Assembly: GCF_050920415.1 (NCBI RefSeq)
Contig: NZ_CP169310.1
Length of the DNA: 64,000 nucleotides
DNA from: Escherichia coli
GTDB lineage: Bacteria; Pseudomonadota; Gammaproteobacteria; Enterobacterales; Enterobacteriaceae
Strand: one strand, 5' to 3'
Shown piece after piece: positions 3,001-6,000 of this stretch. Each line of letters starts with the position of its first letter. Positions within the stretch are counted from its first letter, which is position 1. Position numbers: made by a program.

Positions 3001-6000
3001 TTCCGCAGGGCGCGGGCCTGAATAACCACCGTCTGACGGCGGGTAATGCATTCCGGGCGGCCCATTCACGTTTCCACAGTGCCTGTTCAGCGGTCTGAAT
3101 CAGGGACGCCAGCAGTTCAGCAGGGACGGTCACCTGGCGGTTTTCGCTCACGTTGCTGATAATCTCCATCGCCGCACCGGAAGAAATACCGGACTCAATC
3201 CGCTGGTCTTCCGGGATGTCCTCCAGGCGCGCCAGGACAGTCCTGATTTCATGATCGGTCAGGGAAATATCCATTCCGTCAGCCAGTGCCTGAATCTCTT
3301 CCGGGGACCAGACAACCAGCATCAGCGGCGTGTCTCCCGGATACTTTGCTACCAGCTCCCGGCAGAGTATTTCGCATGTCCGTACATACTCTCTCCCCTC
3401 AATCTTTGAAGCAGGAATCCAGTTCCAGAATTTCGGTATATGCTTCCATCAAGAGGCGGTTTGCGCGAAACAGCGTCTGACGCACCAGACGTTCCGGCAG
3501 GGTGTCGGCATTAAAGCTGTACCGCTGCTCCATCTCATTCATGGTTGTACGCAGGTCGCACATGGCACTGGCCACCTCCGCCACTTCGGCGCGAAGTTTT
3601 TCGTGTCCGGCATAATTCATTTACGCAGCCTCCGGCATAAACCAGTCATCATTCGCGGCCCCCTGCTGCATGGCCCGTTGAACGGCAGCCAGTCGTTGCT
3701 GTCCGGCACGGTGATACTGCTCAAGCAGCTCGATACCGATATACCGGCGTCCGGACCGGAGGGCGGCAACGCAGGTTGAGCCGCTGCCTGCAAAAGGGTC
3801 CAGCACAATAGCGTTCGGGTGTGTGAAGCTCTCAATCAGCGGTTGCAGGCTGCTAACAGGCTTTTCCGTCGGGTGATGACGATTGCCTGAATATTTCCAG
3901 CCCTGCACATCCGGTAAGGGTTTCTGAGGCAGCGCCGGACGCCCTTTTGCCAGGATGTAGGCGCATTCGTGGCGGTACGCGACATACGCAGATTTGGATG
4001 TGTAGTTTTTGGTGAACACAAGGTGCCCTACCACGCTGAATCCGGCGCGTTTCCAGGCCGCCATAAAGCGGTCAATACGGTTCCAGCCGTAGAAGCTGAC
4101 CATCAGCGCGTCTTTTTTGAGCACGCGGTACATTTCATTGCAGGCTGGTTGAAGCCACTCGTCAGTTCTGTCACCGGCAAGAGTACGGCCGGAACGGTCG
4201 CAGAAACCGACCAGATAAGGTGGGTCGGTGATGATGAAATCGACAACATTGTCCGGAAACGTGGCCATAACTCGCACGCAGTCACCCAGAATAAAACGGG
4301 ACATAACAGCACTCTCCTTCTCTTACAGAGGGCACCAGGAGGGCCCCCCTGTGGTGCCCGTTCCCCGCTGCCTGTGGGCTGTTCACCGCGTCCGGTAACG
4401 GGTCAGGCCGACCGTGGAATATCGCAGCCGTCGTCTTTTTGACGGCGAGAATATGCCGCGAAAGCGGCTTGAAGGGCGTTCATCAGAAAAGGGCGACAGG
4501 CTGGCGTACACTGTCACCGACGCCAGCCGGGAGCGGTAAAAGCGCCCGTCCCGTGCCCGCCGGACGCGGGACACTGACCACAGGCAGCGTTCCTGCCGCG
4601 CCGCGTCAGCCGGCGCAGTAAAAAGAGGAGCCCGGCGACATCTTTTGTTACTTGCCAAGAAAACCCCAAAATAACCCACAACAACCCCAACAAAACACCA
4701 AAAACAAGACAAACAATCATTGATTGATGGTTTAAATGGGGTAAACTTGACAAATAAACCCACTTAAAACCCAAAACACCCCCAAATAAACACCAAAAAA
4801 ACACCATAAGGAGTTTTATAAATGTTGGTATTCATTGATGACGGTTCAACAAACATCAAACTACAGTGGCAGGAAAGCGACGGAACAATTAAACAGCACA
4901 TTAGCCCGAACAGCTTCAAACGCGAGTGGGCAGTCTCTTTTGGTGATAAAAAGGTCTTTAACTACACACTGAACGGCGAACAGTATTCATTTGATCCAAT
5001 CAGCCCGGATGCTGTAGTCACAACCAATATCGCATGGCAATACAGCGACGTTAATGTCGTTGCGGTGCATCACGCCTTACTGACCAGTGGTCTGCCGGTA
5101 AGCGAAGTGGATATTGTTTGCACACTTCCTCTGACAGAATATTACGACAGGAATAACCAACCCAATACGGAAAATATTGAGCGTAAGAAAGCAAACTTCC
5201 GGAAAAAAATTACATTAAATGGTGGGGATACATTCACAATAAAAGATGTAAAAGTCATGCCTGAATCTATACCAGCAGGTTATGAAGTTCTACAAGAACT
5301 GGATGAGTTAGATTCTTTATTAATTATAGACCTCGGGGGCACCACATTAGATATTTCTCAGGTAATGGGGAAATTATCAGGGATCAGTAAAATATACGGA
5401 GACTCATCTCTTGGTGTATCTCTGGTCACATCGGCAGTAAAAGATGCCCTTTCTCTTGCGAGAACAAAAGGAAGTAGCTATCTTGCTGACGATATAATTA
5501 TTCACAGAAAAGACAACAACTATCTGAAGCAACGAATTAATGATGAGAACAAAATATCAATAGTCACCGAAGCAATGAATGAAGCACTTCGTAAACTTGA
5601 GCAACGTGTATTAAATACGCTCAATGAATTTTCTGGTTATACGCATGTTATGGTTATAGGCGGTGGCGCAGAATTAATATGCGATGCAGTAAAAAAACAC
5701 ACACAGATTCGTGATGAACGTTTTTTCAAAACCAATAACTCTCAATATGATTTAGTTAACGGTATGTATCTCATAGGTAATTAATGATGGACAAGCGCAG
5801 AACCATTGCATTCAAACTAAATCCAGATGTAAATCAAACAGATAAAATTGTTTGTGATACACTGGACAGTATCCCCCAAGGAGAACGTAGCCGACTTAAC
5901 CGGGCCGCACTGACTGCAGGTCTGGCCTTATACAGGCAAGACCCCAGGACCCCATTCCTTTTATGTGAACTACTGACGAAAGAAACCACATTTTCGGATA

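Follow-up and report, generated by a model that had tools for sequence, protein, structure and literature searches.

A putative M.EcoGIX-type orphan adenine methyltransferase and its candidate single-strand DNA promoter in a plasmid leading region of Escherichia coli

Introduction

In a 64-kb window of Escherichia coli DNA (the whole stretch that was analysed), an adenine methyltransferase gene is found in a row of plasmid genes of the leading-region type. This raises the question whether the enzyme belongs to a restriction-modification system, regulates its plasmid or host, has become idle or acts when the plasmid enters a new cell. The plasmid of the window is a large enterohaemolysin and enterotoxin virulence plasmid of STEC.

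The T-strand of leading regions is enriched in orphan methyltransferases (PMC11541004). M.EcoGIX of the IncI1 plasmid pESBL from E. coli O104:H4 guards the plasmid by a factor of up to ~1000 against EcoGIII and EcoRI, and the transfer of pESBL into a K. pneumoniae recipient is ~9-fold better with the enzyme (PMC4288162). The protection requires that the recipient expresses the gene off the incoming strand (PMC4288162, PMC7736820) and is abolished by inversion of oriT (PMC7736820). M.EcoGIX sets promiscuous m6A at SAY on single strands and is linked to PolI, a combination known only for M.EcoGIX and M.BceJIII (PMC7736820). Induction in the recipient straight after transfer was shown for pESBL and also for F (PMC4288162, PMC7736820, PMC12672017).

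Results

The methylase gene and its product

The methylase frame runs from 4304 to 3621 on the minus strand with an ATG start, a TAA stop and 227 codons for amino acids (Table 1). The first-pass annotation had called the product an N6-adenine methyltransferase with a DPPY motif, and the family searches bear this out. Pfam PF01555 (N6_N4_Mtase) was matched over almost the entire profile with an E-value of 2.1e-40, and NCBIfam NF010253 (PRK13699, 'DNA methyltransferase') gave 485.8 bits at a curated cut-off of 244 bits, with residues 1-227 aligned to profile positions 1-226. The DPPY motif is at residues 27-30. In a family alignment of 42 sequences T26, D27, P28 and P29 are invariant, as are D169, F171 and G173, and the methylase retains every family-invariant residue. 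Motif IV precedes motif I, which is the arrangement of the beta-class amino-methyltransferases. PF01555 covers N4-cytosine methylases as well; this reading was ruled out by the DPPY motif together with the m6A chemistry of a 91% identical homologue.

Table 1. Features of the methylase locus and its surroundings (positions in the window)
Feature	Position	Strand	Remarks
Part of Frpo-type (class 1) element	1-560	+	near-identical to F (L005:9660-10340)
KlcA/ArdB-type antirestriction gene	1318-1743	-	PF03230, E 1.8e-26; syntenic in F and pESBL
Further T-strand element with a strong fold, candidate 'class 2' ssDNA promoter	1744-2160	+	5' of the KlcA/ArdB gene
256-aa conserved leading-region ORF	2161-2931	-	YchA/Hp11 in the pESBL gene table; syntenic ORF in four compared loci
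DUF1380 gene	2888-3388	-	disrupted: loss of 1 nt behind codon 3 and of 22 nt close to the 3' end
yubE-family ORF, 73 aa	3399-3620	-	start abuts methylase stop (TAA-ATG); PF27407 YubE
M.EcoGIX-family (F YfeA / R64 YfbB) beta-class N6-adenine DNA methyltransferase	3621-4304	-	227 aa, intact
SAM-binding motif I, FAGSG (residues 171-175)	3780-3794	-	sequence and family alignment
Catalytic motif IV, DPPY (residues 27-30)	4215-4226	-	sequence and family alignment
Shine-Dalgarno AAGGAG	4314-4319	-	9 nt 5' of the methylase ATG; read from the sequence
Structured non-coding element, putative equivalent of 'class 3' single-strand DNA promoter	4341-4631	+ (transferred)	~290 nt, 5' of the methylase
Element: small hairpin	4341-4359	+	
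Element: closing helix	4360-4364/4627-4631	+	
Element: long stem	4367-4396/4559-4588	+	
Element: junction helix	4398-4402/4550-4554	+	
Element: hairpin B	4403-4472	+	
Element: hairpin C	4474-4547	+	
Candidate -10-like hexamer GACACT (speculative)	4570-4575	+	right arm of the long stem, conserved mismatched patch

The closest characterised relatives are plasmid enzymes. M.EcoGIX shares 206 of its 227 residues (91%) with the methylase in a gapless alignment of two proteins of equal length, and its motifs are identical. The 21 substitutions are clustered at residues 5-46 and 122-134; five of them fall in the 122-134 loop, which may contact DNA. F plasmid YfeA shares 211/227 residues (93%) and differs at 16. 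YfeA and R64 YfbB are close kin; M.BceJIII is more distant. Compared with the pESBL copy, the gene differs at 13, 10 and 52 first, second and third codon positions, which indicates purifying selection. STEC IncF plasmids have an annotated 'DNA methylase' whose DNA matches the locus at 100% identity, and the methylase occurs in at least 5000 plasmid records. The plasmid gene, of which the locus holds an intact copy, is well studied and already known. By analogy with its homologues, we consider the protein an M.EcoGIX-type orphan adenine methyltransferase that would set m6A at SAY on single strands. Since M.EcoGIX is promiscuous and acts on single strands, a prediction of specificity from the target-recognition domain is largely moot.

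The AF2 model of the methylase (pLDDT 92.7) found its best PDB fold matches in CcrM, M.BceJIV, M1.HpyAVI and RsrI (Foldseek TM 0.72-0.78, probability 1.0). These enzymes have the fold and the motif order in common with the methylase at an identity of only 22-27%, and they are sequence-specific and act on duplex DNA. With CcrM as the closest solved fold, and with the effects that Fomenkov et al. report for M.EcoGIX on copy number in PolI-dependent plasmids (PMC7736820), the gene might code for a Dam- or CcrM-like orphan that methylates the duplex plasmid or host DNA in vegetative cells and so controls expression, replication or copy number. The likeness to CcrM is limited, however. The CcrM equivalog NF050803 scored 84 bits, far below its cut-off of 830, and the C-terminal domain of CcrM is missing. 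The alignment to 6pbd is confined to the motif regions, and the stretch from motif IV to motif X is ~40 residues longer in CcrM. In addition, the M.EcoGIX family is reportedly silent in laboratory growth, with the plasmid and host unmodified in the native context (PMC7736820).

No partner endonuclease found in the window

No restriction-endonuclease domain was detected by Pfam in the ORFs of at least 150 aa or by PADLOC in the 64-kb window, and the annotation of NZ_CP012500.1, a near-identical record, lists none. The gene is flanked by yubE (73 aa) on one side and by a non-coding hairpin followed by parM on the other. A nuclease-like gene beside the methylase was not found in the loci of F, pESBL, Serratia, Salmonella, Pectobacterium, Klebsiella or Citrobacter. 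The orphan status assumed in the first-pass annotation is therefore upheld. PADLOC files the family as 'MTase_II' (PDLC03228, E 1e-139) and several small or unannotated ORFs of the window have no family match, so the methylase could in principle supply the modification in a classical Type II system whose endonuclease lies nearby unrecognised. Against this, the yubE and hairpin/parM neighbours recur across genera, and the characterised homologue is promiscuous and specific for single strands, which is incompatible with a cognate endonuclease (PMC7736820). The Type II reading is already largely refuted, and we give it practically no weight.

Position of the methylase in the leading region

The order of the genes (methylase, YubE, DUF1380, the ~256-aa ORF and KlcA/ArdB) and their orientation are those of the leading regions of F and pESBL, in keeping with an array of the leading-region type. 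In pESBL the operon partner, the 73-aa YubE, and the genes downstream are the same as here, and both the gene for M.EcoGIX and that of F occupy what is probably the same place, at the leading region's oriT-distal edge. The outer flank of the upstream element differs: it is a divergent parMRC cassette here, a DUF1281 gene in pESBL and a sopAB-side segment in F. Ten of the compared loci have gene calls, and in 7 of them YubE directly follows the methylase; in the Erwinia locus a weak-scoring YubE ORF comes after DUF1380 instead. Our literature search on YubE in leading regions found no report. The methylase had also been placed beside a putative antirestriction gene. A KlcA/ArdB gene (PF03230) is indeed present in the same array and on the same strand, but it is located ~1.9 kb downstream in a separate operon and is not an immediate neighbour.

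The window begins within an F-like segment between a 63-aa ORF and ssb. In the F plasmid oriT and traM are on the low-coordinate side of the array, so the plus strand would be the T-strand and the template for all array genes. The orientation of the methylase and the layout are the same in F, in pESBL, where oriT is also known, and in the nearest full record; here oriT lies beyond the window. As the 64 kb hold neither oriT nor tra genes, transfer competence and the assignment of the strand rest on these three. In the nearest full plasmid record MOB-suite recognised a MOBF relaxase and MPF_F and typed the plasmid as conjugative.

Both deletions in DUF1380 are frameshifting, and the closest plasmid records carry IS421, IS110 and IS66 insertions inside the leading region. 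This indicates that part of the array is decaying. The window itself is rich in IS fragments. These observations would fit a methylase that is an intact but idle remnant, hitch-hiking on the IncF backbone of a STEC virulence plasmid that transfers rarely or not at all. However, neither the methylase nor yubE nor the 290-nt element is damaged, several related plasmids have identical copies of all three, and the typing of the nearest record points to conjugation. We consider an idle remnant unlikely; it would bear on the current use of the module, not on its identity.

A predicted fold on the probable transferred strand upstream of the methylase

The mechanistic key is a conserved putative single-strand promoter element upstream of the gene, which was absent from the first-pass annotation. 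The plus strand at 4341-4631 is predicted to fold as single-stranded DNA into a three-way-junction hairpin with -95.8 kcal/mol (z -5.7). The region is more conserved than the gene it precedes, with 321/334 positions identical to pESBL (96%) and 328/334 to F (98%), whereas the methylase coding sequence is 88-91% identical to the two plasmids and its third codon positions are 23-28% diverged.

The fold was analysed in an alignment of nine Enterobacterales loci. Of 86 consensus pairs, 21 have compensatory changes, as compared with 11.6±2.0 in shuffled alignments (0/500 reached 21) and 2-5 in slid controls; 95.6% of the cells of the consensus pairs are paired. The covariation spans Serratia, Salmonella, Pectobacterium, Klebsiella and Edwardsiella. 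The plus (template) strand folds better than the minus (coding) strand in all nine aligned loci and in 7/7 wider loci. The junction core CCGTGGAATA ... TATGCCGCGAAAGCGGCTTG, in the helices at 4398-4472, is sequence-invariant in the nine loci, in contrast to the long stem, which covaries freely. Upstream of a metagenomic methylase homologue with only 57% identity, an equivalent folding element has the same conserved blocks, and CCGTGGAATA and TATGCCGCGAAAGC.GCTTG are still recognisable there.

A search of Rfam with the element gave no match apart from a single chance-level hit. Many records annotate a 'hypothetical protein' on the minus strand over the element (ORF 4383-4763). We do not accept it as a gene, because indels of 1, 2 and 11 nt separate the homologous loci at this place and those of other genera have no gene call there. 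The ORF usually annotated at 4384-4680 in all likelihood marks a structured DNA promoter and not a gene.

Assignment of the promoter

We recognised no duplex promoter of the sigma-70 type in the region 3300-4850. The class 3 single-strand DNA promoter of pESBL was described by hairpin prediction and a 5' RACE start, with conservation in F (Wen et al. 2025, NAR; PMC12672017). As judged from its sequence, the element at 4341-4631 appears to correspond to this promoter, being of the same sequence family, in the same place and in the same orientation. The paper deals with pESBL and F; the covariation across genera and the 57% identical relative are added here. With Frpo and ssi1-3 (class 1; F and ColIb-P9) the element would share the principle of a T-strand hairpin of ~300 nt that drives leading-region genes and works only when single-stranded, but there is no significant sequence similarity: a blastn comparison of 4300-4650 with the Frpo-type copy at 1-700 found one 13-nt identity. 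The similarity to the class 2 element of the window was not significant either. That element folds with -107.8 kcal/mol (z -5.7); class 2 as a category is taken from PMC12672017.

The absence of a duplex promoter and the folding of the element on the transferred strand make a regulatory vegetative methylase less likely still. The putative promoter element is selected for folding on this strand, and we regard regulation by duplex methylation as very improbable.

A plus-sense scan of the nine aligned sequences gave only two conserved -10-like hexamers (columns 219 and 285), TA[A/C]A[C/A]T at 4507-4512 and [G/C]A.ACT at 4570-4575. A contiguous conserved -35 was not found for either of them in these sequences. 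The TA.A.T hexamer was rejected as a standard -10 on geometry, as it is at a stem-loop junction without a downstream duplex. In GACACT the A at position 2 and the T at position 6 are kept in 9/9 sequences, and columns 283-291 are sequence-invariant with unpaired positions. A -35 spanning the junction (TTGA joined to CC) with an 18-19-nt spacer to GACACT is speculation and was weakened by CTTGTT at this place in the 57% identical relative. With GACACT as the -10, a start at around template position 4372-4374 and hence a leader of ~70 nt would be weakly predicted.

Discussion

The most probable reading, which we hold with high confidence, is an M.EcoGIX-type anti-restriction methylase that is driven by a single-strand promoter element and active on plasmid entry. 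The present DNA contributes to it the identity and catalytic motifs of the protein, the purifying selection, the synteny and orientation, the lack of an endonuclease and, for the element, its conservation, its covariation and its preference for one strand. The m6A/SAY single-strand specificity, the PolI association, the zygotic induction and the protection against restriction would be shared with the homologues. The early-expressed anti-restriction or establishment role that had been proposed thus gains support by analogy, through the 91% identity to M.EcoGIX, which is protective in the recipient (PMC4288162, PMC7736820).

The methylase gene would be in the first, oriT-distal operon of the IncF leading region and would lack a recognisable sigma-70 promoter in its duplex form. 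When the transferred plus strand enters the recipient single-stranded, the element at 4341-4631 is expected to fold into its three-way-junction hairpin and may be taken as a promoter by the host RNA polymerase. Transcription would then proceed leftwards, first across the methylase and then across yubE, which abuts it. The methylase made from the entering single strand would deposit promiscuous m6A (SAY), and the new duplex would be partly refractory to many restriction enzymes of the recipient. Once the element turns duplex, the promoter would be lost and methylase expression would end.

A functional analogue is DpnA of the pneumococcal DpnII system, which methylates incoming single-stranded DNA and guards it against restriction once it is duplex. 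DpnA differs in being GATC-specific, chromosomal and competence-induced within a restriction-modification locus, and it serves transformation, not conjugation.

In Enterobacterales, resistance and virulence genes are carried mainly by IncF and IncI plasmids, and the module is one route by which these plasmids pass the restriction barriers of new hosts. The methylase copy of the window leaves current knowledge unchanged and its practical value is in annotation, where M.EcoGIX-family single-strand anti-restriction methylase is a fitting label. What is added to the known module is the fold, conservation and covariation of the ~290-nt upstream element, and the covariation across genera is independent support for the class 3 single-strand promoter that was proposed recently.

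The invariant core, the covarying long stem and the lack of a conserved canonical -35/-10 pair leave room for a dedicated recognition module. The element would then be more than a simple -35/-10 mimic, and its core would physically couple the priming of the complementary strand to the expression and targeting of the methylase, which we consider rather improbable. The core could be recognised by RNA polymerase in a non-canonical mode, by SSB or in a primer hand-off to DNA polymerase I, and the translationally coupled YubE might belong to the same device.

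The gene encodes an intact methylase of the M.EcoGIX family

The first-pass annotation had proposed an N6-adenine methyltransferase with a DPPY motif, and the profile searches bore this out. The protein matched Pfam PF01555 (N6_N4_Mtase) with an E value of 2.1e-40 over nearly the full profile and NCBIfam NF010253/PRK13699 'DNA methyltransferase' from end to end with 485.8 bits (cut-off 244). DPPY occupies residues 27-30 and lies ahead of FAGSG at residues 171-175, which gives the order motif IV before motif I, as in the beta-class amino-methyltransferases. The AlphaFold model, calculated with 42 homologues as input, was confident (mean pLDDT 92.7). 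The closest solved structures were CcrM, M.BceJIV, M1.HpyAVI and M.RsrI (TM about 0.7-0.78), where the fold is alike whereas the identity is just 22-27%.

All invariant residues of the 42-member family alignment are kept. The protein is 91% identical to M.EcoGIX of the IncI1 plasmid pESBL without gaps, and 16 of its 227 residues differ from the F-plasmid copy, named YfeA by Yamaichi et al. (PMC4288162). The nucleotide differences to pESBL number 13, 10 and 52 at codon positions 1, 2 and 3, respectively, which fits a gene under purifying selection. An AAGGAG ribosome-binding site is found 9 nt 5' of the ATG. Taken together, the gene is intact, under selection and in the same location and orientation as its characterised homologues.

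Several large IncFIA/FIB plasmids of Shiga-toxigenic E. coli, e.g. pCFSAN004180G (NZ_CP012500.1), in which the protein is labelled 'DNA methylase' (WP_000085877.1), carry the region 3300-4800 with 100% identity. The locus is present in at least 5000 plasmid records and is thus extremely common. The methylase is a textbook example of its well-characterised family, and public records already list it in identical form.

Coordinates of the methylase gene, its neighbours and the single-strand elements
Feature	Position	Strand	Remarks
Methylase ORF	3621-4304	-	227 aa; ATG start at 4304, TAA stop at 3621-3623
M.EcoGIX gene of pESBL	NC_018659.1 54782-55465		
YubE-family ORF	3399-3620	-	73 aa; ATG abuts methylase stop (TAA-ATG)
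DUF1380 gene after yubE	2888-3388	-	broken in window
Frpo-type (class 1) single-strand promoter region	1-560		window begins inside
Element upstream of KlcA/ArdB gene	1744-2160	+	ssDNA fold -107.8 kcal/mol, z -5.7
Methylase element, small hairpin	4341-4359	+	consensus fold
Methylase element, closing helix	4360-4364/4627-4631	+	consensus fold
Methylase element, long stem	4367-4396/4559-4588	+	26 pairs, 11 compensated
Methylase element, junction helix	4398-4402/4550-4554	+	consensus fold
Methylase element, hairpin B (arm)	4403-4472	+	consensus fold
Methylase element, hairpin C (arm)	4474-4547	+	consensus fold

The leading-region array and the transferred strand

Downstream of the methylase follow the YubE-family ORF, the DUF1380 gene, an ORF of about 256 aa, a KlcA/ArdB-type antirestriction gene (PF03230), a second DUF1380-like ORF and a 63-aa ORF. 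This order is that of the pESBL and F leading regions, in agreement with the leading-region-type array that had been suggested. Largely the same array, with some members absent or reordered, was found on contigs of Erwinia, Serratia, Salmonella, Citrobacter, Pectobacterium, Klebsiella and Edwardsiella. The methylase had also been placed beside a putative antirestriction gene; both belong to the same array, but the YubE ORF, DUF1380 and the 256-aa ORF lie between them.

No restriction-endonuclease domain was detected with Pfam and PADLOC in the window ORFs of at least 150 aa, and no restriction endonuclease is annotated in NZ_CP012500.1, which upholds the orphan status. Since the conserved neighbours are non-nuclease genes and no endonuclease was found among these ORFs or in that record, the methylase as the modification half of a cognate restriction-modification system is largely excluded.

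When F is turned the same way as the window, its traM and oriT are on the low-coordinate side; the minus strand carries all array genes, with the methylase as the final leading-region gene before the maintenance region. With this layout, the window plus strand would correspond to the transferred strand and be the template for the whole array, an assignment that rests on synteny, as oriT lies outside the window.

In most loci (the window and the homologous loci L007-L012 and L014) the YubE-family ORF directly adjoins the stop codon of the methylase or overlaps it, with overlaps of 1 or 4 nt outside the window; it is missing in the Edwardsiella locus L013 and displaced in the Erwinia locus L006. 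A literature search on YubE in leading regions gave nothing. Compared to pESBL, the window DUF1380 gene lacks 1 nt directly behind codon 3 and 22 nt close to its 3' end. Both deletions shift the frame, and what is left is an N-terminally truncated ORF with a shifted tail that overlaps the next gene. This decay, together with the IS elements in the region of related plasmids, raises the less likely alternative that the module is intact yet idle in the present plasmid, which would touch its current use and not its identity.

The remaining window genes include parMR cassettes, toxin-antitoxin genes, many IS fragments, the ehx haemolysin operon, ST/EAST1 enterotoxin genes, a gentisate pathway, formate dehydrogenase and polysaccharide genes. 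Two distinct ParM-type partition cassettes are present (4822-6137 and 17766-18815). The first, parM/parR, is divergent and adjoins the end of the leading-region element.

A conserved, covarying structure precedes the methylase

The methylase start and the divergent parM gene are separated by GC-rich non-coding DNA. Roughly 335 nt of it (4305-4640) match pESBL at 96% and F at 98% identity; the adjoining methylase coding sequence shows 88-91% identity, with 23-28% of third codon positions diverged. The homology breaks off sharply at about 4641, at the start of the parMRC cassette. As single-stranded DNA, the plus strand folds with -95.8 kcal/mol (z -5.7 against dinucleotide shuffles).

The element was aligned from nine loci (window, F, pESBL, two Serratia, Salmonella, Pectobacterium, K. 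michiganensis and Edwardsiella). Compensatory double changes occur in 21 of the 86 pairs of the consensus structure, and 95.6% of the cells pair when the structure is held fixed. Column shuffles gave 11.6 +- 2.0 compensated pairs and 0 of 500 reached 21; sliding the partners by 1-3 columns lowered the number to 2-5. With DNA parameters the plus strand was more stable than the minus strand in all nine loci (consensus energy -58.6 versus -47.2 kcal/mol). When the divergent upstream regions of Erwinia, Citrobacter, a second Salmonella locus and a metagenomic homologue were added, all folded significantly (z -3.9 to -6.6) and the template strand was always the better folder. The metagenomic homologue, with 57% protein identity, retains the blocks CCGTGGAATA and TATGCCGCGAAAGC.GCTTG. 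An Rfam search of the element gave no match. The DNA upstream of the methylase is a conserved, covarying and strand-biased structure.

In NZ_CP012500.1, F and pESBL a 'hypothetical protein' ORF is annotated over the hairpins (4383-4763, minus strand). It was rejected as a true gene, since the homologous loci have indels of 1, 2 and 11 nt and the gene callers placed no gene there in the Serratia, Salmonella, Pectobacterium, Klebsiella and Edwardsiella loci; this commonly annotated ORF is probably spurious.

The element matches a class 3 single-strand promoter

Wen et al. 2025 (PMC12672017) report that transconjugants induce the pESBL M.EcoGIX operon and likewise its homologue in F. They describe a predicted hairpin upstream of M.EcoGIX, unlike Frpo/ssi, as a class 3 single-strand DNA promoter, with a start site mapped by 5' RACE and conservation in F. 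Judged by its 96-98% identity, the window element corresponds to this promoter. Modest additions to this picture are the cross-genus covariation, which supports the class 3 promoter, and its invariant junction core.

No sigma-70-type duplex promoter was detectable in 3300-4850. Only two -10-like hexamers are conserved in the element: TA[A/C]A[C/A]T (4507-4512) and [G/C]A.ACT (4570-4575). The second falls in a part of the long stem that does not vary in sequence and is in places mismatched. A conserved contiguous -35 was not found for either, and a -35/-10 pair could not be convincingly placed. A junction-spanning TTGA|CC is a possible -35, to which the distant relative (57% identity) gives no support. 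The missing duplex promoter also speaks against a Dam- or CcrM-like vegetative regulator, which is unlikely as the match to the CcrM model, at 84 bits, stayed below the cut-off of 830 and the family is reportedly silent in established cells (PMC7736820).

Two further elements precede it. Window 1-560 is nearly identical to the F DNA that separates ssb from the 63-aa leading-region ORF; its presumed target operon is beyond the left window end. The non-coding element upstream of klcA is probably the class 2 promoter of Wen et al. The class 3 element has no significant similarity to either, which agrees with the classification of that paper, and three different single-strand promoter-type elements would thus lie in the first 4.65 kb.

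An identical 13-mer, TGTGGGCTGTTCA, occurs at 96-108 in the Frpo-type element and at 4373-4385 in the class 3 element, on the left arm of its long stem; as it is not kept in the class 3 elements of other genera, it may reflect chance or local exchange. At their oriT-distal edges, the class 3 and class 2 elements (4622-4648 and 2079-2107) have 29 nt in common at 83% identity (GTAAAAAGAGGAGC..GCGACATC-like), and a GAGGAGC...GCGACATCC block is kept in almost all nine class 3 sequences. In the closest public record, NZ_CP012500.1, an IS421 between the antirestriction gene and the 256-aa ORF is inserted inside or beside the class 2 element and is missing from the window.

Probable protection of the entering strand

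Deletion of M.EcoGIX lowered pESBL transfer by up to about 1000-fold into recipients with EcoGIII or EcoRI and about 9-fold into a K. pneumoniae strain (Yamaichi et al. 2015, PMC4288162). The enzyme is promiscuous, with partial m6A at SAY on one strand only, prefers single strands in vitro and associates with DNA polymerase I; an inverted oriT abolishes the protection, so that the recipient must synthesise the enzyme with the entering strand as its source (Fomenkov et al. 2020, PMC7736820). Orphan methyltransferases are among the most enriched leading-region families and are always encoded for T-strand transcription (Samuel et al. 2024, PMC11541004). By analogy to the 91-98% identical homologues, the upstream structure would act as a promoter only when single-stranded, the methylase would modify the entering strand at the loose SAY motif and this methylation would shield the new duplex from restriction. 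The anti-restriction or establishment role first proposed for the gene thus appears essentially right.

The 280-aa proteins P0093-P0096, each on about 60-70 contigs, match both PsiB (PF06290) and the methylase (PF01555) and are possibly products of leading-region deletions or rearrangements that joined the two genes.
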